From Octopus vulgaris (lineage: Eukaryota), in assembly GCA_951406725.2 (NCBI GenBank), contig OX597838.1:13516001-13580000 (forward strand): a stretch of 64,000 nucleotides of DNA, given 5' to 3'. The notes beneath the pieces were generated by a model that saw only the letters and a program-made list of their open reading frames with translations, was not told the DNA's origin and ran no database searches. Below, in pieces: positions 1-60,900 of this stretch. The stretch's first letter is position 1, and each line of letters opens with the position of its first letter. Made by a program: the position numbers and the translations under genes.

Positions 1-270
1 AGAATTGTTTATGACGATTTGAACAGGTGTAAAGTTTGTTCCCAGGTTGCTCAGTGATGGTAACCAACTACTTGACAAAGATGGGTATCAAAACTGTCCC
101 TCACCCCCTCCTTACAGTCCAGACCTTGCTCCCTTTGACTTTTGGCTGTTCCCCAAGCTGTAGGAGAACCTCGAGAGCAGTTGTTTTGAAGATGAAAGAG
201 GCTGTGACAAGAGTCCTGGACACCTTTACTTTAGAGAACTTTAACTTCCATGGCGCTTTCATGAAGTAAC
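1..270 (+). mobile_element. mariner transposase C-terminal remnant
   Basis: Frameshifted translation gives HP..PYSPDLAPFDFWLFPKL, the mariner YSPDLAPxD motif; stops and frameshifts present. Confidence 0.75.
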
Positions 271-289
271 CGGAATACTACAATTTGTG

Positions 290-900
290 GTGCTGACATA
301 AAAAAATGTATTTCACAAAGTCTTAACTCTAGTGACCTACTAAATAAACCTGTCTGTGTTGCAACAGATGTTGAATATATTGCAAGATCTGATGTTTTTA
401 CTGATATAATGAATCATCTACAAACTCTTAACTTGGCACTCCAGAGAAAGGCTAAGATTATTTCTAATCTTACTCAGTTTTCAGCTTTCAAAGTAAAATT
501 AAAACTTTTCTAAGAGACATTGTTGAAAAATTTCAGGCACTTTGCCAATCTCAGAAATGGAGTGAATCCATTTCCTGATGCTAAAATAAAAGACCACAAA
601 CCGGAATACCAGCATAAATTACAAAGATTACAAAGATTACTTGATAATTTCCTAACCAGGTTTGATGACTTGCACAAGGTGAAGCAGGACTTTCTTGATG
701 TGATCAGTGATGGTTGTCCAGTTCTCAAACCTCTAGTTATGGAATCACGAGGCAATGGATTTACAGAATTTAGGTCTAAAGAAGATCCGTAGATCCTTGT
801 CTACAAAAGAGTTCTGGAAACAAGTTCCAGAAATAGAATGTCTTAAACTGAAGAAAATAACTGTGCAACCACTCTGTAATAAATTTTATGAAATGGAAGC
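290..900 (+). mobile_element. degenerate hAT transposase C-terminal remnant
   Basis: Fragments DIMNHLQTLNLALQRKAKIISNL and EFWKQVPEIECLKLKK resemble the hAT C-terminal/dimerisation region; multiple frameshifts. Confidence 0.55.
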
Positions 901-2970
901 ATTGTGTAGGCCTTACAAGCCACCAACTTATTGAGCTAATTCATATAGCCTTGATGGAAACCTGAAAGACCCCTGCTAGCAATAAATAGCAGCTTTAATA
1001 GCCTGATATGTGTTGCATTGCCATAAAAATTTGCAAGTCTCCTTTTATAAGATAGGATCTGGTTTAAATAACTCTAATTTTATTGGTTTGCCTTTTTACA
1101 TATTTTTCATGTTCCGACTAGATATTTACTAAGATAAATATTTTAATTATTTTTACCTTTTCTCTTTTATTCTTGATTGTCTAATTTCATGTTACTGAAT
1201 GCCAATTTGTACAACCTATGCATAAGTACACTTGAACATATGTGTGTATGTCTATGTGCGGATGTTCGTTTCAATTTCACAGACTAAATTCACCTGCATT
1301 CCGCATCTGCTGTCTCTTGCTCACCCCCACCTCCAACTCTGTTGATTTAGCTTTCTTTTCCCCGGAGACACAAGGTGCCATAAATTATCTTTACAACTGC
1401 CACACTTCCGAACTTCAAATTATAAAGGTAATTTATATACACCCCACCCTCAATGTTTTTGTAGTTCATTATTGTATTAAATATGCTAAAACTTTTGGTG
1501 TACAAACTTAAACTAAATCAACTGCATTCATGAATAAATATTATTGCATACATACAAAATGTGTTTGTAGCAATTAAAAAACATTCTTTTGTGTCACTAG
1601 TTACGCTCATCAGACTACAGCCAGCCTGGGGCACCATCATGGAAGTATTTAATCAATCATATCAACCCTAGTACTTTTTTTTAAAGTTTGGCATACTTCT
1701 ATTATTGATCCAAGTTGTGTGGGACAGAAACACTGACACAGATACAAATGTAAACATGGTGTGAATATTGTTCATGTCTTGTGACTCTCAAACACCTGAA
1801 CTTTATAGTCTTGTTAATCAAGTTTCACCAACTTTGGATTAAATGTTTCAAGTAGATTTTGGCATTTCATCTCAGGGGAAGTTGAAAGGTTACCTGCAAT
1901 TTGGATCTCAGCCATAAACCAGCATGTTTTGGAATATTTACACTTGCATCCCCGCAATAAATTTTCAGAATTTACCATATAAAAATGACATTCGAAAAAA
2001 TTGCCTTTCTTTTGCAGTTCAGTGTATAACTTGTAAACAAGATCACACCTAATTATGACACCAGTGTCTGTCCTGGCACTGTTTTTTTCTCTATATTGCT
2101 AGCAGGGAGATGAGTTGCTGCTATCTCTAGTGGTCAAGTGTCCATCACTGATGAGAAGGTTGAAATCATGTGATCTGGTGGTCTCGGTGCTGGAGGTGGC
2201 AGGGATTTATCTCCCCGCTAGCGATATAAACAAGAGTGCATTATTCACCAAAAGCCAATATGAGAAGTTCTCTCATGATATCTACCACAGTATAGTTTGT
2301 TCTAACAGAACATCCACATTTAAGTGGGCATAAATATTGCCTCTCGGTATTAATACTGCCTCTGTCACTTACGTATATTTTTCATGACATGGGAGAGGAA
2401 GACCATATGACATGCTGCAGCTAAACTGGAAAGGAAACTGCAAGGCTGCAGAGCTGAAAAAACCCAGAGATCCAACTAGAGAAAAGCAGAAAAAACAGCC
2501 CAGGGTTGAAAGCAGTGGAAAAAAGTTGTTGATGGCTTCTGCTTCATAGGGAGTGAAAGCTTTAAGTGATATGAATGAAAGGAAAGAGCTTAGCCTGTGA
2601 CACCCATCTGATGGGTTTTTCTCTTGAAACCAGAGACTTGGCCCAAATACTTGCAACAAAGTGAATTCTGCTAAAGGCATCTAAGTGTCAGGTGGTGCTG
2701 TTAATCTGAACACATTATTACAATACAACAAAAACTCTTGCACTTTTGTAGCACTGGTAGTTGCTAGTATGAGACTCGTATTCATTTTCTGTTCATGTTT
2801 CATTAAATCAACATTATCTACCTCATGCTTACTAATAAATACTTCATTGCTATCTCATATTCCTTCACACATGCTTATTACTTATTTCACCTTGCTCGTT
2901 ACCTCTTCATCGTCAGTTCATGTTACTAATTCTACATAATTTTCTCTTGTTGCTAATTGTTTCTCTGTGT

Positions 2971-3356
2971 GTGGAGGCGCAATGGCCCAGTGGTTAGGGC
3001 AGCAGACTCGCGGTCGTAGGATCGCGGTTTCGATTCCCAGACCGGGCATTGTGAGTGTTTATTGAGCGAAAACACCTAAAGCTTCACAAGGCTCATGCTG
3101 GGGGTGGTGGTGAACCCTGCTGTACTCTTTCACCACAACTTTCTCTCACTCTTACTTCCTGTTTCTGTTGTACCTGTATTTCAAAGGGCCGGCCTTGTCA
3201 CACTCTGTGTCACACTGAATCTCCTCGAGAACTACGTTAAGGGTACACGTGTCTGTGGAATGCTCAGCCACTTGCACGTTAATTCCACAAGCAAGCTGTT
3301 CCGTTGATCGTATCAGCTGGGACCCTCATCGTCGTAACCGACGGAGTGCTCCTATA
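2971..3356 (+). mobile_element. tRNA-derived SINE, family A (OR-like)
   Basis: Pol III A box TGGCCCAGTGG and B box GGTTTCGATTCCC; 10-bp TSD TTCTCTGTGT (2961-2970 / 3357-3366); near-identical copy at 35185. Confidence 0.85.
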
Positions 3357-3506
3357 TTCTCTGTGTATTGTTAATCACTCCCTCATTATCTCATGTTACT
3401 AATTGTTTTCACTTTGTTATTTTATGTTGGTAATTACCTCCCAAATGATATTTCACATTGCCAATTACTTCCCTTATTTTTAATACTCATGCTGACCATT
3501 GCCTCT

Positions 3507-4486
3507 TTTGCGGTTTCCATGGACAGCAAGGCTCACCAATGGAGAAGTCCATAAGCAGATAAAGCTGAAAATGTCGCTAGAAGCTAGGATCACCAAGCGT
3601 AGATTGGCATTTTTCGGTCATATTATGCGGAGAAAATCCCTGGAGAAGGGCATCATGCTCGGAATGGTCAGTGGCAAGAGAGGAAGAGGCCGACCAAGAA
3701 CCCGCTGGCTTGACACCATCAGGAGTGATACCGAAATGGACATGGCCAGTCTGAAAGAAGTGGCCCAGGATAGAACTGACTGGAGGACACTGATCCAACG
3801 AGTGACCGAGAGTCGACTTCGACTGAGTGGATAGATAGATAGATATATATTATATATACGGAATGGTCAGTGGCAAGAGAGGAAGAGGCCAACCAAGAAC
3901 CCGCTGGCTTGACACCATCAAGAGTGATACCGGAATGGACATAGCCAGTCTGAAAGAAGTGGCCCAGGATAGAACTGACTGGAGGACACTGATCCAACGA
4001 GTGACTGAGAGTCGACTTCGACTGAGTGGATAGATAGATAGATATATATTATATATACGGAATGGTCAGTGGCAAGAGAGGAAGAGGCCAACCAAGAACC
4101 CGCTGGCTTGACACCATCAGGAGTGGTGGACATGCCCACAAAGTCAGAAAACAACACAGCTCCCATGACTTTCGGAAACATTTCTTCACACTCAGAGTTG
4201 CTGAAGCATGGAATAAACTGCCTGCGTCAGTTGTTGACTGCCATGACACTGCATCCTTTAAGGCCCTCATGCTTTCCGAAATCCGTCGAAACTACACCTG
4301 ATTATATATACACTTTCGATGAGTTGTAGTGCACCTGAGCACTGTACACAATGTTTTATTATTATTATTATTATACCGGAATGGACATGGCCAATCTGAA
4401 AGAAGCAGCCCGGGATAGAACTGACTGGAGGACACTGATCCATCGAATGACCGAGAGTCGACTTTGACTGAGCGGATAGAGAGAGA
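3507..4486 (+). mobile_element. RTE-clade LINE 3' end with ~199-bp terminal unit present three times
   Basis: ORF WTARLTNGEV..RRLAFFGHIMRR..GKRGRGRPRTRWLD..AQDRTDWR is the typical RTE ORF C-terminus; units at ~3660, 3859, 4058. Confidence 0.85.
4126..4372 (+). mobile_element. CR1/L2-group LINE 3' end nested in the third RTE unit
   Basis: GHAHKVRKQ..RKHFFTLRVAEAWNKLPASVV..SFK motif, then a short UTR and (TTA)n tail; RTE sequence resumes at ~4373. Confidence 0.8.
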
Positions 4487-4520
4487 TTTTTAATACATCA
4501 TAATTTTTTTCGTTGTCGAT

Positions 4521-4668
4521 TCATGTTGCTAAGTTATTGCTTATCTCGTCCCATGTTGCTAAGTTATTGCTAATCTCGTCCCATGTTGCTAAGTTATTGC
4601 TAATCTCATCCCATGTTGCTAAGTTATTGCTAATCTCGTCCCATGTTGCTAAGTTATTGTTTATCTCA
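4521..4668. repeat. 30-bp minisatellite (CATGTTGCTAAGTTATTGCTAATCTCGTCC) x~5
   Basis: Direct tandem repeat just upstream of a splice acceptor. Confidence 0.9.
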
Positions 4669-4698
4669 TTACCTTCTCTCCTTCTTTTCTCATTGCAG

Positions 4699-5143
4699 CT
4701 TACAGAAAATTCGTACTATTGGAACGAAATTGGCAAAAGGATTTGGCATGTTGATGGGGAGGAGGTACATGTACCTGACAGGTGTCGAGGATAAAGTGGT
4801 GTATGTTTGGGACCGCAACGCTGACCTGGAGAAGCAGAAAGGTATCGTCAAATATGCTGGCCTCGTTACCATGGAAACACAGAAAGAACTGAAAGTTAGC
4901 CCCGAGCTCTCCTTGCACCCGGGAAAGATGTCTTTTGACAATCACGGGAACCTGTGGATCATAACTACAGATTACCAGTTGTACTTCAGAAATTCCACGG
5001 AGGGCGAAGGCTATGAGACAAAAATTGTGAAACTAAAAGTCGATGACTCAAGGGAAAAGCGAACCACTTCGACAGCAGCTTTAGACCGGAAGCTCCTTAT
5101 ATCGTTAATAATTGCCACGGTCATGTTGTGCATTGTTTTGTAG
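4699..5143 (+). CDS. Terminal exon of a yellow/major royal jelly protein (MRJP)-like beta-propeller protein with hydrophobic C-terminal (GPI/tail-anchor-like) segment
   Basis: Polypyrimidine tract + CAG acceptor at 4696-4698 (phase 2); non-repetitive open frame IGTKLAKGFGMLM..YMYLTGVEDKVVYVWD..LHPGKMSFDNHGNLWIITTDYQLYF..TKIVKLKV resembles the last blades of yellow/MRJP; ends LLISLIIATVMLCIVL*; AATAAA at 5195-5200. No upstream exons identified in the window. Confidence 0.65.
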
Positions 5144-5194
5144 GAATTTGACAAAAAGAGTTATGTTATGACTATTAGAAGAAGGATGCAAAAG

Positions 5195-5200
5195 AATAAA
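5195..5200 (+). promoter_or_regulatory. polyadenylation signal of yellow-like gene
   Basis: AATAAA ~50 nt after the stop, followed by GT/T-rich sequence. Confidence 0.5.
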
Positions 5201-5698
5201 GTAGAAAGAGGAGAGAGAATGTGAGTGTGTGTATTTTATTATTTTTCAGTGTCTGCTGTTATAGTTGTTGTTGTTGCCTTGTTTCCAACAAGAGGAGTTT
5301 CAGGTAATACAAGTGATCCTAGTTTTAAGCATAAATTCATATACATACTTTATCACCACCACCACCACCATCATCATCAATTTACGTTTGCTTTTTGCCT
5401 ACTGGCTTGAATCAGATTGTTCTATTCCAGTAAAAATTCTTGTCACTCCTGAACATCCTTTGTCATCAGATTCACAACAACAACGCCGGAATATTGCTTA
5501 TCTTTATTGTGCTAGCATCGATATTAGTTCAGCAGTTCTCAAATTGAACAAATACCAAGCTACCTCCAGCAAAAAAAAAGTAAAAAGAAGCATAGTTCTT
5601 TTGACATCTGTCCCTTCTTTATGGATGAAGACAAAACAGAGCTTGCACTGTATAAATTTTCTTCTTTGATTACCATAGTTTGGACAAGTTTACAGAGT

Positions 5699-6069
5699 TT
5701 AACCCTCTCGTTACCGTATTTGTTTTGAGATGTTCTGTGTTTCTTTCAATTACTTTAAATATTAGGTTGTCCCAAAAGTTCGTAAACACTTGCGAAAATT
5801 GAATTTTTACTTGCCAAGTACTAACAAAAACAACAAAAATTATTCCTCAAAATAAAGACCCTTATTTTCCAAGACTTTCTACGAACTTTTGGGACAACCT
5901 TATATAACAAAGAATTTAGTAAAATAACTTAGTTATCGTTAAGCTAGTGTTAGGAACATAAATTGTGACTAAGATTTGGTAGAAGATTTTAATTCAAAAC
6001 TTATGGAAGCAAGACATTTGTACTCAGAGCCAGAGGTAGTTTCAGCCAGATTGGTATCAAAAGGGTTAA
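5699..6069. mobile_element. piggyBac-like MITE family E with nested mariner-type MITE (5762-5902)
   Basis: TTAA-CCCT...AGGG-TTAA ends; inner element has TIRs AGGTTGTCCCAAAAGTTCGTA / TACGAACTTTTGGGACAACCT flanked by TA; partial second copy 6110-6242. Confidence 0.8.
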
Positions 6070-6799
6070 ACAGGCTTTACATTTGACAGATTAATCTGAA
6101 TGCTAAAGGGTTAAGCTAGTGTTAGGAACATAAATTGTGACTAAGGTTTGGTGGAAGATTTTAATTCAAAACTTATGAAAATAAGACATTTGTACTACAG
6201 GGCCAGAGCCGGTTTCAGCCGGGTTGGTAACAAAAGGGTTAATACTATCTTAATTTTATTAAACATGGCAATTTATCCAGCAGCTTTTCAATCCTTAAAA
6301 GCTCTTCTATGAGAAACACTGAAACAGCTCCATTTCCTCACGACCCCTTAGCTACTGAAATGTGTAAGAGGCTGCCAGGATTGGTCTTTAGTCAACCCAT
6401 TTTCCCCTGTATCAGTTTTTATTCAGATTTGCAACACTTGTAAATGAGTTCACTTTGCTGCAGCTTGTACAGTTTCTGTTTTGCGACTACGCGAGAGATC
6501 TTTACATTAAGTGTTGCGTTGTATTTGTCCCATGTGTCTGTCTGACAGCTCTAGAAATGTCACCTCCAACACAGCTGAGAAACTGCATTTCTTTGTGATG
6601 TAGGAGATTACGTTAGCAATCAAAGGACACTGATCATAAAGCCAACATTCATAATGCTCGTGGCACAGTTGTTTAGACAATAGATGATGACGTGGTTGGT
6701 GTTTATGAGAGGATTGTCTTTGTGTCTTGTGTGTGTGTATGTGTGCATACATACATACACATATACACACATAAACATATACACACATACACTTCTCTC

Positions 6800-16975: not shown

Positions 16976-18692
16976 CACTCAGAGCCATGCTAATAGATTA
17001 GGAGTGAGATTTAGGATTTCTTGTTTTTTTTGTGAATTGATTTTGATAAAACTTTTCCCAACTGGTTTGCACACTATGGTAACACAATTGTTATGTTTTC
17101 ATTATTCTGTGAAATGTCCTTTTTTTATTTCAGATTCTTCAGATTTTGGGTGAACCATGGTAATAGCTTTTGAATGAAAATATCCCATCTGGACATTATT
17201 TTCAGAAAATGAAGGGTAATAATACATATTAACCACACATTGAGTATATATTTAACAGAAAAACATAATAATATTATAACATTTATTGACATAATGAATT
17301 ATTTAGCCACATGAGCACCCAGGAAGAAACGATCTGACTGTGGGACCTCCAAGACTGTGACAGCTAGCAATTTAAGGAATATTGGCCACAAGATATGTGG
17401 GAAACCTGGACAAACAAGCAAAGCCATTTTCACCACCTTCAGATTTCCTCATGTACCAATAACCACCAAAAATTGCAATCTCGGGACCATGGCTTTTGTG
17501 CAAGAACCCCTGAAACTGCTTTCTTCACAGGAGTTTGAGGCTTCAATGTACATGACGTTAGACACGAGTTGTGTTTCACTGATGAGACCAGGGTGACCCT
17601 TGACAAACCTGATGGTTGGGCAAATGATTGGGTCTATTTTGGAGATGAGCAACAACAGGGTGGAGGAGTCATATTGTGGGCTGGTATCATTGGGGACAAA
17701 CTTATTGGTCCAGCCAGAGTACCTGAAGAGGTTAAAGTGACCACAGCTGCCTACTGCAATCTTCTGAAAGAGGTCTTGGATCCCTGGCTAGGTGACACAT
17801 CACTATCACTTCTAAGGAATCTCATATTAATGCATGACAATGCTCCCTCCCACTCTGCTAGGACCACCTAAGCATTCTTAGGGTTTTGTGCCATACAAGA
17901 TGAAAGGTTGGAGGTGTGGCCGCTAGCATCTCTGGATCTCAACCCTATCGAAAAACTTTGATCCATCATTAAACAAGACGTTTAACCGATGGACACCAAT
18001 TTATGTTGAAAGATGTCTTATGGGCAACCATGGAAGCTGCAGCAGAGGCAGTCCAACCTGCTACTATTAAGAAATTGATAGATTCCATGACTAACAGGGA
18101 TTTTGAAGTTATCCGTCGAAATGGGGCTCATGTGGCTAAATAATTCATTATGTCAATAAACGTTATAAAATTATTGTTTTCTGTTAAATATATACTCAAT
18201 GTATATATTTAACCCTTTCGATACCAACCCGGCTGAAACTGCCTCTGGCTCTGAGTACAAATGTCTTGTTTTCATAAGTTTTGAATTAAAATCTTCCACC
18301 AGACCTTGGTCACAATTTATGTTCCTAACACTAGCTGAATGATAACTAAGTTATTTTACTAAATTCTTTGTTATATTTAAAATAATGGAAAGAAACACAG
18401 AGCATCTCAAAATAAATACAGTAATGAAAGGGTTAATATGTATCATTACCTTCCATTTTCTGAAAAATAATGTCTAGATGGGCTATTTTCATTCAAAAGT
18501 TATTAGCATGGTTCACCCAAAAAACTGAAGAATCCGAAATAAAAAAGAAAGGACTTTACACAGAATAATGAAAACATAACAATGATGTTGCCAAAGTGTG
18601 CAAACCAGCTGAGAAAAGTTTTATCAAAATCGATTCAAGAAAACTGAGACATCCTAAATTTCACTCCTAAGCTATTAGCATGGTTCTGGATA
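16976..18692 (+). mobile_element. Tc1 DNA transposon with long (~320 bp) TIRs, internally deleted
   Basis: TA-CACTCAGAGCCATGCTAATAG left end mirrored at 18150-18690; DDE fragments FTDETR, MHDNAPSH, WPLASLDLNPIE; MITE inserted in the right TIR. Confidence 0.85.
18209..18436. mobile_element. piggyBac-like MITE family E nested in Tc1 TIR
   Basis: TTAA ends; interrupts otherwise continuous TIR. Confidence 0.85.
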
Positions 18693-21229: not shown

Positions 21230-24200
21230 CTGGAATTCAATGGAAAAATATATATAAATATATTACACATATAACTTGAAAAATTGTGCTTGAAGGCATG
21301 ACACATTACCAAAAATTTGGGCTCAAAAAAGATAGTGCTACATTCCACTCCTATACTCTATGCCAGCATTTCTCAACTGGGGTTCTCCAGAAACCCTAGG
21401 GTTCTGTGAGAAAGAGTGAGATAGGCTAATGCAGTCCCACTGCATGGCATCTTGGGCAAATGTCTTCTATCACAGCCCCATGTTGACCTAAGCCTTTTGA
21501 GTAGATTTGGCAGACAGCAGCTGAAAGGAGGTTCTCATATACATATATCATCATCATAATTGCTTCCTAGCTACATGGTTTCGGGTTCAGTCCCACTGCG
21601 TGGCACTTTGGGTAGGTGTCTTCCACTATAGCCCCGAGCCGACCGGAGCTTTGTGATTGAATTCGGTAGGTGGAAGTTACTGCCGTGTGTGTATGTGTGC
21701 GTATAGCTGCTCAGTGCCTCTCCGAAAGAGAGAGAGAGGGATAATTATATATAAATAAAATGACAGTGGCACATAAAAGCACTCATGTGGTGACACGTAA
21801 AAGCGCCCATGCAGTACCACGTAAAAGTGCCCGTGCAGTACCACGTAAAAGCGCCCGTGCAGTACCACGTAAAAGTGCCTGTGCAGTACCACGTAAAAGC
21901 GCCTGTGCGGTACCACGTAAAAGTGCCTGTGCAGTACCACGTAAAAGTGCCTGTGCAGTACCACGTAAAAGCGCCCGTGCAGTACCACGTAAAAGTGCCT
22001 GTGCAGTACCACGTAAAAGCACCCGTGCAGTACCACGTAAAAGCACCCAGCACACTGTGTTAAGTTGTTAGCATTTGGAAGGGAATCCAGCTGTAGAACC
22101 CATGCTAAAATAGGCAGGAGTCTGGTGCAGTCTCACTGGCTTGCCAGCTCTGGTCACACATTTGTCGGCGCTAATCCAACCCATGCCAGCATGGACAACA
22201 GATATTTAATGATGATGAGTCTATATAAACACACACGTGTTGTTCATGCCTCGAAATCATGGTTGTTAAAGAACAACCAGCACTGTCGTTTAACTGATGT
22301 TTGTTTCCAGCATTCTGTGAAAAACCGCTCTATGTTACGCTGGTGAGACCCATATTGGAGTACGGGATCCAAGCCCTTTCTCCTTATCTCCTCAAAGACA
22401 TACATCATCTTGAAAGAGTCCAGAAGCTGGCTACCCGCATGGTTCTTGGTCTCAAGCATTTGTCTTATGAAGAAAGGCTGAAGACGCTCGACCTTTATTC
22501 TCTAGAAAAACGACGACGCCATGGTGATCTCATTCTCGCTCACAACATCATAAGCGGAAAGTGTAACCTCTCGAAAGAGCTGTTCTTCACTCCTGCTCCA
22601 GAGTGTAGGCTGCAGAGTCACTCCGAAAAGCTCTATCTGCGACGATTTCATCTCAATCGAAGGAGAGGGGCTTTCTTCGTCCGGGTTGCGGATCCGTGGA
22701 ATAAGCTACCGGACGAGATAGTGAAGATGCCGACGACCACTCGGTTCAAAGTCTCTCTTAACCAGAAATGGCCTGAACTCTTTGCATGAACACCCTCCCT
22801 GTACATAACTCCATGTCCCCCTACATGGCCTTGCTTTTTGCTTTTTGAGCCAAAAAATTAACTTAACTTAACTGACATTTGGCCATGGGGAAATAAATGC
22901 TGTTGGGTATCAAACTCATGACTTTATGATCATGAGCTGAATGCCCTAACCACTAAGCCATGTGCCTTCACAAAAGCCAGAATGTTATGAGTGGTAACAA
23001 AATATGGGCAGACAATTCGTTCAGTACTGTCTGTCCATGGGGGAAATATTACTTTACTTGGAATGTATACTGAACCAATTCTAGCATGCAATCGTTGAGT
23101 AAATAATTTAGTTAACCCACCTGTTCTTCATCTAAGTTGGTACCGTTACACAAAATGTTCATAAGGCCCGTACGGCTTGGGGCTGCTATTGAAATAATCT
23201 GGTGAAAGAGAGAGAAATATTGTAAAGGGTAACAGAAACAGCAATAACAACAGCAATGATGAAACAAGTTGGACACAAGCCAAAGCAAGAGCATCCTGAC
23301 CTGCTAGAAATAGCAGCCATATCCTCAAGGCTATTTTGAGTAATGAAACGCAGTCCTAAATACAGGCACAGGTGTGTCTATGTAGTAAGAAGCTTGCTTC
23401 CCAACGACATGGTTCAGGGTTCTGTTCCACCTTGGGGGGCAAGTGCGTTCTACTATATAGCCTTGGGTTGACCAAAGCCTTATGAGTGTATTTGGTAGGC
23501 AGAAACTGAAAGAAGCCCATTATATACATGTGTGTGTGTAGTTGCTTCCCGTAGTCACCACTTGACAAGTAGTGTTGGTTTGTTTATGTCCCTGTGATTT
23601 AACGATTCATTAAAAGAGACCGATAGAAATAGTACCAGGCTTTAAAAAAAAAAGATAAATTCTGAGCTTGATACATTTGACTAAACACTCTTCAATGCAT
23701 TGCTCCAGCATGGCCACCGTCTAATGACTGAAACAAGTAAAGAAATAGAGATACTTTATATGAATACAGGACATGCTGCAGTTGGAAGACCTGATCATAG
23801 GAAGACCCGATCATAGTTGTCTAACATGGACAACTGGATCAAAACTGACCTGGGGATAAAAAATGATGTATGAAGTTAAGTTAGTGAAGTTAATTTTTTG
23901 GCTCAAAAAGCAAAAAGCAAGGCCATGTAGGGGGACATGGAGTTATGTACAGGGTTATATATATATATAACATCATCATAAGTTGTTGACAGTAAACACC
24001 TGTATTGTTTGTTTGGTTCCTTGGAAGCAGCTCAAAATGCACAACACCTCTGTAATCCCATCAAATTGACAGCATGACCTTTTTTGATGCAATTCACCTT
24101 TTGATGTTGTTTCTGCTGGCTCATTACGCTTGGACCATGATGGTTTTCGATTGATATTATTGTAAACAATTTATTTCCCATCACCAGTGATGACTTCTTT

Positions 24201-24702: not shown

Positions 24703-26349
24703 TACGACAGGCTTCTTTCAGTTTCCATCTACCATATCCACTCAAGGCTTTGGTCGGCCCAAGGCTATAGTAGAAGACACTTGCCCAAGGTGCCACGCAG
24801 TGGAAATGAACCTGGAACCATGTGGTTGGTAAGCAAGCTACTTACCACACAGCCACTCCTGCGCTTATATTTAACATAATATCATAAGGTAACTGATATC
24901 TAAAAGATATAAAACTTTCAAGCAGGCAATGCAGCAGATCTAAAAAGCATTTAACCCTTTAGTGTTCAGATTATTCTGTTAAATGTAATACTTTTTCACT
25001 CAAATTGTTTGGAATTAATCATGCATTATCTTATAGCTTTGAGGTTTCAATGATGTCATCATCAATGTTTATTTTTAGAACGTCACTGTAGGTTAGGTGT
25101 GAGAGGCTGGATATCGCCAGTTTGAATATAAAACATGTATAATATATTGGGCCGGATGTGGCCGGTTTAAACACTAAAGGGTTAATGATAAATCCAAGAG
25201 GCATTAGAAAATGAGTGAATGAAAGACTGAGCAAATGAATGAAAGCAAAAAAAAAAAAAAAAAAAAATTCCTTACTGAAAATAGTTTCTGTACAAGCCAT
25301 CCATGGTATTGACTAAGTGTTTCATCATAGGACTTTTGAATGAGTGGATGTAGTGACTGAGATGTTTTTCCAGCTTTGTGTTCTTCCAAATATCCAGACA
25401 GAAAAACATATATGAATTCTAGAGCTCTAAAAGTAGAAATAACACCATCGTCAGGCTCGTCAATTTACTCGTTGACTCATCGTGTTAAGTGAATCTCTTT
25501 CAATTTATGTGGAACCCAAGTATCAAGCTTCTTAACAAGTCCAAGATATTTAGAATTATTTTCAATTGTTGTGCGATACATATAACACCTCTGCAATCTA
25601 TCACACACAATCAGATTCAATAATGGCTTTGATTCAGTCATCATCAACTTCAGTGGGTCGACCAGAATATTGGTCATCTTTGAGTGAAAAATCTCCAGAA
25701 TGGAATTCTTTATATCATTTCTGACATGTGCATTCTGTTAAGTAATCAATACCATAAACTTCACGTCTTTTTGTGAGTTTCACCAGCTTTCTTGCCTTTA
25801 CGGAAATAAAAGGCCAAAATATTGTGAAAATGTTTGTTTTTTGCACTCAATGTTAAAATTGACACTGAACTAACAGTTGGAGACAAAATTATGTGCAATT
25901 TGCTTCTAAAGTAAACTAAAAGTAACAGATTTCAAATGTCAAAGGGTAAAAAAATCATAACATTGACAAAAGTCATTAAAAAAAAATTGTAACTATTTAT
26001 GAAAAATGAAATTACTTTCTTGCCAACCCTAGATATATACACACACACACAAACACACATATATATATACATATATATATCACGTGATCAGATGTTGCTA
26101 CACATCGCTGGTCACAATGCGTTCGCATTGTTTTAGCCTTCGAATGACGCCACCCCGCTGGATAAGCGAGCAGGCCAATATATATATATATACATATATA
26201 CAAAATGAGAAAATGGAGAAATATATCTAAATCATTCATCAACTATCAGATAATACCGAATCATATACTTTATTAAAACACTACACAAGAGCATTAAGAT
26301 TAGACATTAATACAGTACAATAATTACAATCAATATAATGAGATATAAC

Positions 26350-26389
<40 letters not shown>

Positions 26390-29300
26390 TACATATATAT
26401 ATATATACACATACATATATGCATACTTACACATATGCACATACATATGGTTCAAATGTACAGAAAACAAAAGACCAAGACAGGTGAGGGAATAGCAAGC
26501 AGGTGTATTAATTTGACTCCCAGGAAAAATGGAAAAGTCTTTGATATTTTGAGCCTATGCTCTTTGACAGAAAAAAGATGAAAGGCAAAAAATGGAGAGA
26601 TAATGAAAAAAAATGAACAATTTGGGATTAACAGTTCTACATATTGAAATGACTGGAATAAAAGAAGCCAATGAAAGGGAAGATAACAGTGACTCATCTG
26701 AACTGAGTGTGCAAGTGCATGTGTGTGTGTATATGAGGATGTTGTGTGTGTGTGTGTGTGTGTGTGAGGGGGTGATCATAAGATTAGCACTCCACACAAA
26801 TGCATACAATAAATGTAGTTCATCATCACCAGCATCATAGTTTAGCATCCGTTTTCCATGCTAGCATGGGTTGGACGGTTCAACTGGGGTCTGGGAAACC
26901 AGAAGGCTGCACCAGGCCCAGTCTGATCTGGCAGTGTTTCTACAGCTGGATGCCCTTCCTAACGCCAACCACTCCGTGAGTGTAGTGGGTGCTTTTTACG
27001 TCGGTTGGTCGGTTGGTGCTTTTTACGTGCCACCGGCACGGAGGCCAGTCGGAATGGCGTTGGCAACGGCCACGTTCAGATGGTTCTCTGATGTGCCACC
27101 GGCACTGGTATCATAGCTACAATTTCCATTGATGTTGATCGATTTCGATTTTGATTTCAGTAGTTCTCAGGGGGGGGGGGCGGATTCAGCATGACAGTGT
27201 GTCAAGGCTGACCCTTTGAATTACAGGTACAATTCATTTTCCGTCAGCTGAGTTAACTGGAGCAGCGAGAAATAAAGTGTCTTGCTCAAGGAAGAAAGCA
27301 TTGCAAAACAAGGAGAGGGAGAAAAACATAAAAGGTGAAGATTACATATAAGAGGAAAGACATATTGCAAGGTAAGAGGAAGCAAACCCCAGCTAATCTT
27401 TATATATAAAAGTGAAGTTGTGTGTCTGTCTCCTACGATTTAGATTCCTAACTACTCCCACATTTTGCAGTGCAGTTTAACCAAAACCGGGTATCTTATA
27501 GTCGTGATTCATATCGAGCCCTTCTGGGTATTAGCACGCGTCTACGATGAGTTTACAATTTAAAAAAAAATTTACCATCAATTTTTCCCATTTTTGGCAT
27601 ATATAAGGGAAGTAACTCTCTAAAAATTTATTATTAAATCTCAGAACGTAAAAAGCTACAGTAACACCCCCTTTGTGGTTAGCCATATTGACATGGCTAT
27701 TATACTTTACATCTCTAAAAATGCTTATATAGTTATTTCCCTTACAAACCTGAGCAACGCCGGGCGATACTGCTAGTTAGAATTAAATTTATACTGGACA
27801 AAATACAGATGGAGTGCCTAAAATGATTACCTCTTCAACCAGAGTCCACTGATGCCAGCATAGTTTGTTGTCTTGTTCTCTTGTTCATCCAAGAACATTG
27901 CTTCAAGGTGGGAGAAGGTAGCAGGGTCCGTGTCATACTTGGTTTGTAGTTTCTGTAGTAAGGAGACAATTTATGAAGAACATATACAATGAGGTAAACC
28001 AGGGGTTTCCAAACTTTTTTGTTGTTATCGCCCACTTTTCCACACACAAAAATTCCCATCGCCCACCTGTGCAGTAATTTTCAGGATGCAAAAATAAAGC
28101 GCATTCAGAACGGTTGCTTAAAAAAAATGAAATATTGCAAAATGGGCATTCGGAGTTGAAACGTTATTCAGAAGAATGATGTTTTTGATTGCTAAATGTT
28201 TCTCAATGAAATAAAATTGAAAAATGATACATGTATTAAATGTTCAACAAACTCACCATTGGTTACCTATAACCTATTTCTTTATTACCCACAAGGGGCT
28301 AAACACAGCGGGGACAAACAAGGACAGACATAGGTATTAAGTCGATTTGATCGACCCCAGTGCGTAACTGGTACTTAATTAATCGACCCCAAAAGGATGA
28401 AAGGCAAAGTCGACCTCGGCGGAATTTGAACTCAGAATGTAGCGGCAGGCGAAATGCCGCTAAGCATTTCGCCTGGCGTGCTAATGATTCTGCCTTGGTT
28501 ACCTATAACCTTTGACTCATCCACTTGTATTCAGAAGATTGGAGAATTTGAATGAGTTGAGGACATTCCTGGCCATTTCATCTATTCGTCAAGAAATTGT
28601 ATTGTTACTAATTGGAATTTTCTTGGTAATCGTGTCAGACTTCTTGTGCATTAGAGTTGACAGAACTTCTTCAATGACAGGTCGAAGCAATGTTTCTCCT
28701 ACAGTGTGGGACTTCCTGGTCTTTGCGACCAGTAATGCAATATTGTACGACACAATCATACCATCATTTTCCTGTACAGTTGCTTCTGTAAACATCGTGT
28801 TCAGTGTTTTCTGCTTTTCGAAAGAAACCTTAAGTTGCCAAAAAATGACAATGGTTTGTCTTTTTTGTCAGAATACTTGGAATCAAAATGGTATTTCAAG
28901 TGTGAAGGCTTCATAGATTCATTGCTCAAAGTTTGCTGGCATAGAAGACAGTTCTGAGGAGAAGCAATAAATCCATAGGACAAATAATTAACGCTGTCCT
29001 GGTGACAAGTTTTCTTTACCGGAGGCATCAGGAAAGTAAAAATTCGAAAAAAGAATTCATAGAAGCAGAATCGGCAAAGGCAGAAATTCACAAAGCACAC
29101 TGATGTGTGTGCATCCAATGCAAGTGTAGCGACGTGGTTAATGGGTCTGGTCACTACTTTTGATCTCAGAATAGCCCTAAAAATGACTTATCATCATCAT
29201 CATCGTTTAACGTCCGTTCTCCATGCTAGCATGAGTTGGACGGTTCGACCGGGGATCTGGGAAGCCAGAAGGCTGCACCAAGCTCCAGTCTTATCTGGCG

Positions 29301-47063: not shown

Positions 47064-50000
47064 GTAGAATTATCTGTTTGCAAAAAAACTAAATGCTTGA
47101 CTAACAAAAACTTTCCCCAACCACCCATTCCTCCATGCCCTCACCCACCTGCCAACACACTAACCCTTTTCTTTTATTTTCATTTCTTATTCTTGGTTTA
47201 AAAAAATTTTTTTTAAAGAATGCATGGAATTCATCATGGGACAGTAATGTAACTTCTAAATGCAAAATTTCTGGCTTATGTAAATAAGGCTTTGAATTGA
47301 ATGCTGGGAATTAGTTTGACATTGCGTATAACTAACATTTGCTTCCATAGGAGCAGTGGTTGTCTATCTCCTTTCATAGCTCAGTGCCCCCACCACCACT
47401 GCTCTCCTGCCCTTCCCTGAATAATTTTGCTGAAACTCAAAATTTAATTTTGAGCATTGGCTTCAGTTATGTTTCTGTTCTGTTAATAACACAATGTCTT
47501 ATATTCTAATCTTATATTCTTATATTCTAGTCTTATATTCTAGTCTTATATTCTAATCTTATATTCTAATCTTATATTCTTATATTCTAGTCTTATATTC
47601 TAATCTTATATTCTAATCTTATTTTCTAGTCTTATATTCTAGTCTTATATTCTAATCTTATATTCTAATCTTATATTCTAATCTTATATTCTTATATTCT
47701 AGTCTTATATTCTAATCTTATATTCTTATATTCTAGTCTTATATTCTAATCCCATCAAAGATTTCTATTTGTGAAAATGTGTTTAAAATATAAAGTATGC
47801 CTGTGTTGTTAAGAAGCTTACTTTGTAAACTCGTAGTTTCAGGTTCAGTCCCACTGCATGGTACCTAGGGCAAGTGTCTTTTGGGTCAACTAATATCTTG
47901 TATGTAAATTTGGTAGATGGAAACTTGTTATATGTACACACACATGCACGGGCACATACAGGCATCCCCTGTATTATCACTACCTCAGCTTACAGAATTT
48001 TGTGCTTATGGAAATTATAAAATATGACCATTAATTTCACTTTTACAGAAACTTGTATTGCATAGTTTTAAATTGTTAACAATTTAAAACTATACTCCCT
48101 TCTTAGCTCATTGGTCATTAGCATTTTAATTAAGATCAAAGTTAATGAGTTGGAAAACTATCTTCAAGTTACTCACATACATGCACACAAATACGCATGT
48201 TTATATTTTGTGTATAATGTGAGTATATATATATATGTTATACAAGTTATAATATTAAATTACCAGTGACTAATATAAACTTAAATTTCATTAAATAGGA
48301 ACTTAGAAAAGTATTATAAACCTTGCTATGTTTAAAGCTATAAACCTTGCTATGTTTAAAGCTAATTAAACTGTTTAATATATATATATATATATATGAA
48401 ATCTAGTACAAATTATAGCAACACACAACACTAGTAAATTTAACAGTTTCCATATGAACAATAGCAATAATAGTAACCAGAATTATAATTATAGATTAAT
48501 AAGTAGTATCAATGTAAACATGAGCAAACAAACCATAAGTAACACAACTAGGTATGAAGATAGGAACTATGTTTTGGGAACCAATAAAATAGAAGAGACC
48601 TGACTGAGCTTTCCCATGAGCTTAGAAGTAGATGTGAATCCTAGAAAGCACAATACTCAGAATGTTTATATGCAAAAGACTAATAGCTTAGAAGATAGAC
48701 AGGAGAATATAGAAATCACATCTAGAGAAGGTGAAGCCAATACTATTAATAGTAGCAGTAGAATTATTAAATGCGATTGTACAAGGAACAGGGTTTGTCC
48801 ACTTAACTCTAATTGTAGGACCAAAATATCATATACAGATGTAAGATTACCTCAGAGAATAGAGAGTATTTCTATATAGGAGCTTAAAGGAGAATTACCA
48901 GACATTTAAGTCCGTTAAGAAATAGGAGCAAAATGAATACCATCAGCCTTAGTAAGCTAATTTGGCCACTAAAAGATAGTAACAAAGTATTTTTGATTGC
49001 TTGGGAAATAATTAGTAAAGCATGACTTTATAGAATAGGCAATAATAAGTGTGACTTTTGTGTGGAAGAAATGTACCAGATTTTCGCTTCTAAATTTACC
49101 CTTATAAACACTAGACAGGCTACGAGGTGTCAACACTGGACAAAATATATGTTTAACCCTTTAGTATTCAGATTAGTTTGTCAAATGTAAAACTTATTTA
49201 TTCATATTGCCTTGAATTAATCAAGCATTATCTCATAGCTTTGAGATTTTGATGATGTGGTTGCTTTTTTTTAGAATGACATTCTAGGGTAATTGTGAGA
49301 GGGTGTGGCTGGTTTAAATACTAAAGGATTAAATGATTTAAATACACAAATTACCATCTGTAGTAATTATACTAGTTAAAATAACGATTATGACACTAAT
49401 ACATATAATTATAATAATAACAATATTAATTGAGGTTATAAACTCAAAATAAGTGAAGTACCTCTGAATAAATAATGTACTCCGTACAATAAAATGTAAA
49501 CAAAACTGCTACAAATAATTGTAGTATAAATAAACATTTGTTTGTCTGTGTGTGTGTATTTTTGTATGTTTTTCAACATATAGACAATACAATACAGAAT
49601 TAAACAGAAAACTTTTATTATAAGGACAGGGTGTTGTTATTGAGCTAGAAACACAGCGTGAGAGAGAAAGTGTGTAAAAAATAGAATTAAAATTTATTTC
49701 AAGAAAAGAAAAAAAACCCGGGTTATTGGTTGAGTATACCAATGTGTTAATTGTAGTAGACTTCTGCTGAAGGATCTAATTCATCTTGACTAGGTTGTTA
49801 CCTGACAGCACAGCAATGGGTAATGACTAGTTGACTACTAAAATTATTGCTAAAGGGTTGGCACTTACAGAGGGATGTCTTCAGGTTTTGCTTATAATGA
49901 TCCCAATTGTGAATATAACATAAAAATTACAAGAGGAATTTACAACGAGCTCAGTTCCTATACTGAGCTATACAAAGAGATGATTCGTTATAAACAACAA

Positions 50001-53400: not shown

Positions 53401-54695
53401 GTTGGATGCCCTTCCAAATGTCAACCACTTTACAGTGTGGGCTGGATGCTTTTTACATGGTACCAACACTGGCAGGGTCACCAAGTAACTTGCAAGACAA
53501 ATATCCTTTGGAGGAGGTGATCTTGGGCCAGATGATAATAGGTTAGAGCAGTGCTTTTCAAACTTTTTGCTGGAGCGGAACCTCAAGGAATCATTCCACT
53601 TGCTCGAGGAACCCCTGTGCAATAATTTAATAGTCTTATGCACACATATCTGCACAGGAGAATTAAAAATCACTGCCGATTTTAGCAGTTTTGTAACTTC
53701 TTGCGGAACCCCTGGACTGTACTGGCGGAACCCTGGTTGAAAACCACTGGGTTAGAGTAACAGAGAGACAGAGAAGCAGAAACAGGTGTCTTGCTGTAGA
53801 CAAGGTACATGGTTTCCTGACCGGTGAGAGAATGGTAAAAATAGAAATATTGTGGGTCATTTTCAGAATAATAAAGGTTTTTCTAAAGCGTCTTCAGCAC
53901 TTCTTTTATTCTTTTAAAAGGCTGAACTGAAACAGCAGACACCTCGAAAGAATTACGAACTACTGGACCAGATGAAGGAACGTGTTGAAACGCTACAAAG
54001 TGCTCGGGAAATAAAGCGTAAACAGGTTTGTGTTGGCACCAAGATGTTTGCATATTTGTTCTTTAGTTGTTTCATGTTTACTCTTACTCTTTTACATGGA
54101 AACTTCCTCACACTCTCTATCATTCTCTCTCACCCACTCTTCTCTAATACTGTCTCTGTTACTCCCTCTCCCTTCCATTCCATTCTCTCACTCCCTCTCA
54201 CTCCCTCTCCCTCCAACTCTCTCCCAACCTTCTCCTTCTCGCTCCCTCTCTCATTCTCTCTCACTCACTCACATCTGTCTCTTTCACTCGCTTATTATTG
54301 TCTCTTTCAGTTGGCAGATGAGAAACTACTGGAACATTGGCAGAAAAATGCTCCTGAAATTCAACAGGTCAGTTGTTCTCATAGATTACATCTGTTACAC
54401 ACTCCTTCACTCACACTCCTTCACTCACACTCAGTGAGTCACTCATTGTCTCAACAGATTTCCTTCGCTTGAAACACTTTAACATGTCTGGGCTGTTTGT
54501 GGTTCAGTTGATTATTACCTCCCTTAGAAGCAACTACTCTCCTGTTGGTGGCAACAAGAAAGGCTTCAGAAAACTCTGGCTCAATGTTACTCACCTCTTA
54601 TTCATGCAAGCATGGAAAGTGGATTGCACACACATGCATACACACACATGCACATACACACACACGCATACACGCATGCACACACATACACGCAT

Positions 54696-57900: not shown

Positions 57901-60900
57901 ATGAATGGATGAATGAATGGATGGATGGATGGATGGATGAATGAATGGATGAATGAATGGATGGATGGATGGATGGATGAATGAATGGATGGATGAATGG
58001 ATGGATGGATGAATGGATGGATGAATGAATGAATGACTGAATGAATGGATGAATGGATGAATGAATGGATGAATGAATGGATGGATGGATGAATGAATGG
58101 ATGAATGAATGGATGGATGGATGGATGAATGAATGGATGGATGGATGGATGGATGGATGAATGGATGGATGGATGGATGGATGGATGGATGAATGGATGG
58201 ATGGGTGGGTGGGTGGGTTTTGGGGATTTGGGTGGGTGGGAAAGAGGTAGGTCCAGGAAGACATGGGATGTGGTGGTGAGTCATGATCTTTGGATGTTGA
58301 GTTTCAATGAGGCAGTGACAAGTGATTACTTTTTGTACAAGTTTTTACCAAATATTGTTCTTTTCCATACTGAAACTACTTGGTAGAATTTATTAATTAT
58401 ATATATGTATATTATATATGTATATGTATATGTGTATTATATATGTATGTATATTATATATGTATATATATATATGATTCTACACTCGCGGAGTGGTTGG
58501 CGTTAGGAAGGGCATCCAGCCGTAGAAACACTGCCAGATCTGACTGGGCCTGACGAGGAGATATTATATATGTATATATATGTATATATATATGTATATT
58601 ATATATGTATATATATGTATATATATGTATATATATATGTATATATATATTTTAGTATATTATGCTTATTATATTGTTGTGAACATCACTTCCACAGAGT
58701 CTCTTCACTTTAAGTACATCTATCATCTTTGATCTGCATTACATGTCCCACACCGTTCATTTGTCTCTTTTGCACACTATGTTTGATCCGTCTGATAATC
58801 AGTTTATCCCCTCAACACTTTAATACTATCATTCATACGTTGTACATCCGGTGAAACATATTTGCTTTATTTCTTTCTAGGTTTTTGTAAAAAAACTTTG
58901 TTTGAGTTGTTTTAACAAGGATTTCTTTTTTTTTTTGTTTTTTTTCCCTCTCTCACAACCAACTTCAGCAAGCTGAAGAGAAGGCAAAGGAAGAAGAGAC
59001 CTACCGGCAGCAAATGGAGGAGGAAATGAAGGCTGCAGCCAAGAAAGAGGAGATGGAGCAGGAGAAGAGGATTAAGCAACGGAAGACTTTGCAAGAAATA
59101 CTGAAGCAGCAGATGGGAGAACTGAAAAGAAAAGAGGAAGAGGTGAGGTCCTATAGGGATCCATAGCCTGGGATGTATCTGTTTTGCTGTTCCTGTAGGT
59201 GTTTGTCTTGTTTTGTCCTTTTTTATGCTTAGTTCCTCTATCATGGCTGAAGGTGAATGAGAAGTTGGTGTTTTTCACGTGTGTGTTCTTCTTCATCATT
59301 TCTTTTCTTCTGTTTCAGTCATAGGACTGTGGCCATGCCGGAGCACCACCTTGAGGTACTACTTGTTTTTGCCAACTGAGCAGATGTGAAATAAAGTGTC
59401 TTGCTCAAGGACATAACGCACTGCCAGGTATTGAACTCACAGCCTTATGATTGTGAGCTGAATGACCTAACCACTAAGCCACATGCCTTCGCATATTTTA
59501 GTAATTAAAAATTTGATTTACTTTTTTTTATATTTCTTTAATAATTAATATTTTTACTGTAACAATTACATCAAAGCAGTCTGATTGGCAGAAACGTTAG
59601 CATGCCGGGTGAAATGCTTAGCAGTATTTCATCTGCCGTTATGTTCTGAGTTCAAATTCCGCTGAGGTCGACTTTGCCTTTCATCCTTTCGGGGTCGATA
59701 AATTAAGTACCAGTTACGCACTGGGGTCGATGTAATCGACCTGATCCCTTTGTCTGTCCTTGTTTGTCCCCTCTATGCATATCCCTTTGTGGGCAATAAA
59801 GAAATAAGAATTGTTAAAGTATGAAACAATGTAAAGCCTTTTATGTTCTGAATTCAAATGCCACCCAGGTGAACTTTGCCTGTCAGTCTCCCAACTACTG
59901 GAGTCTATAGAGTCAACTATGTTCTCTCTCTCTCTCCAAATTCAACATCTTGTGCCTGCCCACATGAAAATTTAATATTTATAACTACATTTTCACAATA
60001 AATGTAATTATGTTTTTCTATGTATTTAATTAAATTTTCATTAAAGAGGTTTAGTTGAATTACACTTAATTCAATGTTATTTTCTAATATAAGAAGGATC
60101 CTTGTTTTTTTTATTATATATTACTTTGATTGTCTCCATTAAGTTTTTTTTTCTCGTTAATCTTAATTGGTCATCTAAAGTGGCAAGCTGGAAGAATTGT
60201 TACCATGCCTGACAAAATGCTTAGTGGCATTTCGTCTGTCTTCGTGTTCTGACTTCAAATTCTACCATGGTCAACTTTGCCTTTCATCCCTTTTGGAGGT
60301 CGATAAAAATCAAGTACCACTTGGGTACTGGGGTCAATGTAATCGATTTACTCCCTCTCTCCCTCCCTCGGAATTGTTGGCCTTGCACCAAAATTTGAAA
60401 TCAGTCTTAACTGGTTTATCACATGTGTTGAGTTCCATGTGAAACGTTTTGTTGTGTTTCAGGCTGCAGAACTTCAGGAACAACAGGCCAAGATAGAGAA
60501 GGAGAAATACCAGATGGAAGTGATGGAAAACGAGCGTAGGAAAGTGGAAGAGAGGAGGAAAAAGCAAGACTTTGGGTGAGTCTCTTTCCACCGCATTACC
60601 ATCACCATCACCACTGTATGCACCACCACCACCACCACCACCACCACCACCACCACCACTGCCATCAGCATTACTACTATCATTGCAACCATGACAACAG
60701 TCACCACTATTAGCCTGTCATTTCCCCCACTACCTCTTACATCCCTAACTCTATCATTACCTCCATAATCATTTTCATCGTCATTGTCATCACTACCTCC
60801 CTCATCATCATCACTACCACACCATCATCTTCATCTCATGACCCGGCAACGCCGGGTCATAGTGCTAGTTAAGTAATAGAAGGGATATAATTTTATACTA

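Follow-up and report, generated by a model that had tools for sequence, protein, structure and literature searches.

The exon at positions 4699–5143 on the forward strand belongs to a yellow/MRJP-family gene of Octopus vulgaris, and is the second and last coding exon for a 407-residue protein (P0001). The best explanation, held here with as much confidence as doubt, is that P0001 is a GPI-anchored, ligand-binding surface protein of skin and sucker, with a rebuilt pocket, and is not a classical dopachrome conversion enzyme (DCE). Unless another sequence is named, positions refer to the window, which is the whole 64,000-nucleotide stretch of DNA that was analysed.

Neither the gene nor its proposed link to melanin is a discovery, since both have been in print since 2019 (Rosani et al., PMC6678240). 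In the available parts of that study, the O. bimaculoides orthologue is rebuilt and modelled, with His-333 and Tyr-352 numbered as in P0001, and is expressed at more than 100 TPM in skin, suckers, and visceral mass. Its pocket is described as poorly conserved, and a melanogenic role is suggested. The two octopus proteins share 84% identity over exon 1 (P0004), and their last 40 residues are the same by eye. Yellow genes are reported there as widespread among molluscs, which overturns an earlier statement, made in a first-pass annotation of this DNA, that the family is patchily distributed and occurs in few other animals. The O. bimaculoides gene is tabled with 0 introns and represented in the tree by an exon-1 model only, whereas in O. 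vulgaris an 18.6-kb intron interrupts the coding sequence. The words ‘GPI’ and ‘anchor’ are absent from the main text of the paper, as available. The additions to the 2019 account are thus a probable lipid anchor, an intron within the coding sequence, and a pocket contrast between two coleoid paralogues.

P0001 is annotated as ‘hypothetical’ in O. vulgaris, and its cluster includes an O. sinensis RefSeq model. It is the sole match to the exon among 442 candidate longer proteins, and is 100% identical to it. The exon has an open frame in phase 2 and ends in a TAG stop codon (5141–5143). It is preceded by an acceptor AG (4697–4698) and, before that, by a polypyrimidine stretch in which C and T make up 87% of 30 nt, so the intact terminal exon of the first-pass annotation is where it was placed. 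The spliced cephalopod gene proposed there is likewise borne out, as a tblastn search with P0001 against the window and 120 kb upstream gives two exact blocks and locates the upstream exon 18,559 nt away. The intervening intron is of the GT-AG type and in phase 2. Exon 1 is 779 nt long, ends in CG before the intronic GTAGGT, and lies outside the window (G000:C25:13501361-13502139; L013:1501-2279). It encodes residues 1–260, including the signal peptide, and the translation of the two joined exons exactly equals P0001. The features within the window are as follows.

1–4698 (+): 3' part of the intron; the two-exon translation equals P0001.
4667–4698 (+): polypyrimidine tract and AG acceptor; contigs of four of four runs begin at 4698.
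4699–5143 (+): last coding exon, residues 260–407, with the final propeller strands, linker, and predicted anchor signal; TAG at 5141–5143.
4742–4744 (+): F275; D in 62 of 92 other homologues.
4916–4927 (+): pocket motif H333-P-G-K336; W-x-D-T/S in the family, Y-P-N-D in Aedes DCE, F-G-T-D in LJM11.
4967–4975 (+): T350-D351-Y352; N-R/K in the family, with N350 retained by DCE and LJM11.
4991–4999 (+): sequon N358-S-T, one of five in P0001.
5051–5062 (+): R378-E-K-R, a possible proprotein-convertase site directly before the anchor; absent from Argonauta and decapod sequences.
5069–5077 (+): candidate GPI omega site S384-T-A, rule-based, 23 residues from the end; S-x-A at 384 also in Argonauta P0003.
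5093–5140 (+): hydrophobic C-terminus of 16 residues, with nothing after it.
5144–5748 (+): 3' UTR, of at least this length, from contigs presumed to be RNA; AATAAA at 5195–5200 is read through.

Two further observations concern the non-coding parts of the gene. A tandem repeat of about 30 nt in four to five copies (4520–4665) abuts the polypyrimidine tract on its upstream side. Ahead of exon 1, a T-rich stretch and an AG lie 5 bases before the ATG (L013:1480-1500, on G000:C25), which suggests an extra intron in the 5' UTR and an upstream non-coding first exon.

Contigs from sequencing runs, which are presumed to be RNA as a guess and give neither tissue nor expression level, begin at the acceptor (4698) in all four runs, and the same runs have zero cover of intronic positions 4513–4654. 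No run containing this sequence was listed as RNA. Three of the contigs that start at the acceptor carry 1022–1226 extra letters that lie off this stretch, which is room enough for exon 1. Full-length sequences of relatives in the available supplement of PMC6678240 show the join between exon 1 and exon 2, and we infer the same join in O. vulgaris RNA. All three coding differences in the contigs are synonymous. Downstream, the AATAAA at 5195–5200 is present, but the poly(A) signal claimed there is unsupported and a poly(A) site at 5195 is rejected, because single contigs continue past the hexamer to 5344, 5686, 5717, and 5748, that is, 140–550 nt beyond. The window contains 77 AATAAA hexamers on its forward strand (1.2 per kb). 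A highly abundant transcribed repeat within the 3' UTR (5700–6290) breaks the contigs, and contigs of similar depth resume at 6215–6400, which suggests that the 3' UTR extends beyond 5748.

Elsewhere in the window, a gene for a glycolipid transfer protein (GLTP) has an exon on the reverse strand (25204–25464; Pfam E 9.3e-13), in convergent orientation to the yellow gene. Two forward-strand stretches (53918–54472 and 58906–59166) are probably exons of a coiled-coil ciliary protein, perhaps CFAP53-like, the second with a weak match to the TPH domain (E 0.008). Decayed mobile-element fragments occur at 3496–4480, 17315–17871, 22298–22789, 28509–29187, and 48604–48879. By eye, these are LINE-like, Tc1/mariner-like, hAT-like, and Penelope-like, and none has a Pfam match at E 0.01.

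The family assignment rests on both profile and fold. The whole of P0001 matches Pfam MRJP (PF03022) over residues 127–378 with 48.2 bits against a cut-off of 19.8 (E 1.2e-12). MRJP is also the only Pfam match of the exon alone, though under the cut-off (E 0.023). SGL and NHL domains, the competing propellers against which the first-pass annotation had set MRJP, have no Pfam match in the whole protein at E ≤ 1. The structure model (pLDDT 90.5) is a six-bladed propeller, and the two propeller-like peptides quoted from the exon are both present. In VIA, its five best matches are honeybee MRJP1 (two entries; Z 36.9), Aedes DCE (36.4), Anabaena 2QE8 (34.5), and the sand fly protein LJM11 (34.4), and the ten best in Foldseek are the same entries. 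The next fold scores 25.4, and SGL/NHL folds reach Z 25 or less against 34–37 for yellow proteins. The expected N-terminal signal peptide is predicted from hydropathy and inspection, with residues 5–19 averaging 1.65, V-L-G before D21, and the propeller starting at residue 22. P0001 also carries five sequons, including the NST at residue 358, and a conserved cysteine pair (C100/C128).

The pocket was compared across the family. At E ≤ 0.001, a library search returned 339 relatives, and 150 of these are listed. The alignment (A1) holds 98 proteins, namely 96 of the 111 with 340–530 residues and two coleoid-like fragments; it excludes six partial-looking proteins and nine near-copies of P0043. 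Pocket positions were mapped by sequence profile, not by superposition. In 92 other homologues, the most frequent residues are Q107 (66), D224 (59), D275 (62), W333 (80), D335 (74), T/S336 (78), N350 (69), and R/K351 (71). At these eight positions P0001 carries, in order, G, S, F, H, G, K, T, and D, and lysine at 336 is outside the six commonest residues in the same 92. The profile alignment gives Y-P-N-D in DCE and F-G-T-D in LJM11 at 333–336, so that Lys336 of P0001 occupies the position of an Asp in both, and both retain Asn350. P-G-K and D351 occur in all nine coleoid orthologues examined from the PMC6678240 supplement, with N351 in the fragment P0060. This conservation argues that the altered pocket has been kept rather than decayed. 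Because residues conserved elsewhere are substituted, classical DCE activity has likely been lost in P0001, and the predicted pocket argues against amine binding as well. The earlier suggestion that this gene is a candidate for melanin chemistry, itself published in 2019 (PMC6678240, as available), or for amine binding thus meets a pocket that has lost the polar residues common to DCE, LJM11, and most homologues.

It is doubtful, though possible, that P0001 is nonetheless a membrane-bound DCE, anchored within the lumen of melanosomes in the ink gland or on epithelia undergoing melanisation, and the octopus counterpart of the Sepia ink enzyme. Like Aedes aegypti DCE (PDB 9W1K) and Drosophila yellow-f/f2, it is a secretory MRJP propeller, and it matches the Aedes fold with Z 36.4 and rmsd 2.7 over 332 residues, at 16–18% identity. 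According to the available text of PMC4052311, the Sepia enzyme is associated with melanosomes, and its main product is DHI, as it is for insect DCE. An ink role is possible, because the octopus produces melanin ink, apparently with this as its single yellow gene, and among the tissues sampled its DCT is expressed almost exclusively in the retina, whereas yellow expression is high in skin and visceral mass (PMC6678240, in the parts available). Against this reading, the Y-P-N-D of Aedes DCE is H-P-G-K in the octopus, so that N and D at 335–336 are G and K; N350 is T; and the octopus protein bears a predicted anchor signal. The second decapod paralogue retains W-P-D-S and N-R. Expression in skin need not mean melanin, since the pigments of adult chromatophores are ommochromes. 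As far as the available texts go, the substrate preference of the Sepia enzyme is unlike that of insect DCE (PMC4052311; PMC5085778), and most yellow proteins tested are not DCEs (PMC3358328; PMC5085778). Sand fly yellows bind amines and showed no DCE activity (PMC3358328, in part), and membership of the family therefore does not imply catalysis. In the available portion of the O. vulgaris ink proteome supplement (PMC10142993), no accession, name, or motif matches P0001; an anchored protein may not enter ink, and this result is not counted as evidence. The literature searched yielded no published catalytic residues for Aedes DCE 9W1K.

The C-terminus points to the cell surface. The TTSTAA spacer and the 16-residue hydrophobic end described in the first-pass annotation are both present, the latter with a mean hydropathy of 3.1. 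A single rule-based omega candidate (S384-T-A) lies 23 residues from the end, and there are no cytoplasmic residues. Argonauta has S-K-A at the same position, small residues occur 19–23 positions from the end in the orthologues P0001–P0003 and P0060, and an end of this kind is found in every one of nine coleoid orthologues examined from the PMC6678240 supplement. P0001 is thus probably GPI-anchored at the cell surface, as predicted from its sequence. Of the two anchors first proposed, GPI or tail anchor, only the former stands: together with the signal peptide, the five sequons and the conserved cysteine pair (C100/C128) give a GPI pattern, and the tail-anchored class is rejected on the same features. 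The tail is not the distinctive feature it was taken to be. GPI-like ends are predicted in 31 of the 96 proteins whose alignment extends to the last strand, and in 27 of the 92 outside the octopus clade, so that an anchor-like tail is common in the yellow family, at about three in ten homologues, and not octopus-specific. Of the same 96, a hydrophobic segment followed by a longer tail is present in 19, and neither kind of end in 46; the thresholds behind these classes are crude, and a few members of the class of 19 appear GPI-like. Type I membrane-like homologues with a cytoplasmic tail include P0030, P0041, P0047, P0057, P0085, P0093, P0109, P0117, P0129, P0133, P0140, P0143, and P0146, some type I-like proteins ending in tyrosine-based motifs. 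Literature searches found no paper linking yellow/MRJP proteins to GPI, and PMC2853526 uses the term for a different protein.

It is unlikely that the tail is instead kept as a short single-pass transmembrane anchor without a cytoplasmic part, or that the ectodomain is freed at REKR as a soluble mucus protein; either would leave the role of the protein unchanged. Residues 385–406 form one helix in the model, and the 19 homologues with longer tails offer some precedent. REKR is found before the anchor in three Octopus species and Hapalochlaena, but is absent from Argonauta and decapod sequences, and shedding at R378-E-K-R in octopods would be a guess from sequence. The hydrophobic run is only 16 residues long with nothing beyond it, and the conserved small residues upstream also speak against a transmembrane anchor.

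A surface scavenger of biogenic amines, like Lutzomyia LJM11 (PDB 3Q6K), is very unlikely. The fold is shared (Z 34.4), as are aromatics at two pocket positions (H333 and Y352; PMC6678240 Table 2), but LJM11 is a soluble saliva protein, and in the available parts of that paper only two of seven listed pocket residues correspond in the octopus orthologue, the other five having no counterpart. Compared at Y90, Q91, F223, F325, D328, and F344, P0001 lacks an LJM11-type amine-binder pocket, in agreement with Table 2 of PMC6678240: Y90/Q91 are G107/A108, F223 is S224, D328 aligns with K336, and, in addition, N342 aligns with T350. Finally, a chance open reading frame, pseudo-exon, bacterial contaminant, or unrelated SGL/NHL propeller, to which only the sub-threshold Pfam score of the exon lends itself, has a negligible probability and is ruled out by the two exons that match an annotated protein exactly, the 45.6-Mb contig on which they lie, the GT-AG intron, the contig boundary at the acceptor, orthologues throughout coleoids, and the Pfam profile results.

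On the favoured reading of a GPI-anchored surface ligand-binding protein, a signal peptide of roughly residues 1–20 would direct P0001 into the ER, where the five sequons would be glycosylated and C100 and C128 would pair. GPI transamidase would then cleave after S384, with lipid taking the place of the 23-residue tail, and the protein would be displayed on skin, sucker, and visceral epithelia, as judged from the expression of the orthologue, with possible shedding at R378-E-K-R in octopods. In the pocket, the acidic and amide residues of the family, D224, D275, D335, and N350, have given way to S, F, G, and T, with a charge exchange from D335...R351 to K336...D351. Such a pocket would favour an aromatic ligand that is neutral or anionic, or else a protein partner, over a cationic amine. 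The GPI step in this scheme is a rule-based call, while the family, fold, hydrophobic ends, two exons, and coleoid-wide pocket substitutions are shown by the analysis. Several points weigh against the scheme. The activity of the homologues with a ‘canonical’ pocket is itself a prediction, and DCE differs from them, and so from the family consensus, at columns 224 and 275. Lys336 could bind the carboxylate of dopachrome. The animal also inks, its DCT is reported almost only in the retina (PMC6678240, as available), and no other yellow gene was found in it.

In the octopus genome, this locus is the only credible match for each of three protein queries (P0001, P0043, and P0013), although a divergent multi-exon paralogue could escape them. 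By these searches it seems to be the only yellow-family gene in the genome. A family-HMM search of the same genome gave no candidate and missed even this gene, and is therefore no evidence on copy number. Second yellow sequences from Sepiella and Idiosepius are present in the available supplement of PMC6678240, and P0043 is a similar record. P0043 keeps D275, W-P-D-S, and N-R, also has a hydrophobic end, and, used as a query, found no second, decapod-type copy in the octopus genome. Other molluscan yellows and the P0043 cluster share the signal peptide, the MRJP domain, and often the hydrophobic end with the octopus protein, but keep W-x-D-T/S, D275, N-R, and two loops that are shortened in the octopus clade. 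In a quick tree, in which the position of the coleoid clade is unsure, this clade has long stem branches (1.11 and 1.31, where the median end branch is 0.9). P0164 (P0012 cluster), a yellow homologue, is named from the sponge Oscarella lobularis; Porifera are given as lacking the family in the available parts of PMC6678240.

Honeybee MRJP1 is a yellow-family royal-jelly protein not known as a DCE; it is secreted, forms filaments, and is not known to have a GPI-type end. It is the best structural match to P0001 (5YYL, 7ASD). The gene of the cuttlefish ink dopachrome-rearranging enzyme was not found named in the literature searched, and the second squid and cuttlefish paralogue, with its near-canonical predicted pocket, would be the better candidate for it.

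A joint reading can be put forward tentatively, and is more doubtful than not. Many non-insect yellows would be GPI-anchored, and the coleoid family would have split into two, an anchored copy that evolves fast and has a charge-swapped pocket, and a near-canonical copy in squid and cuttlefish, one of which would be the ink dopachrome-rearranging enzyme of 1994. The pocket differences between the paralogues offer a cheap and direct test of which gene, if either, encodes that enzyme. If the joint reading is true, a GPI-anchored surface location would be an unreported localisation for non-insect yellows, and the octopus gene would perhaps represent a new ligand sensor of skin and sucker, or an enzyme with new chemistry.
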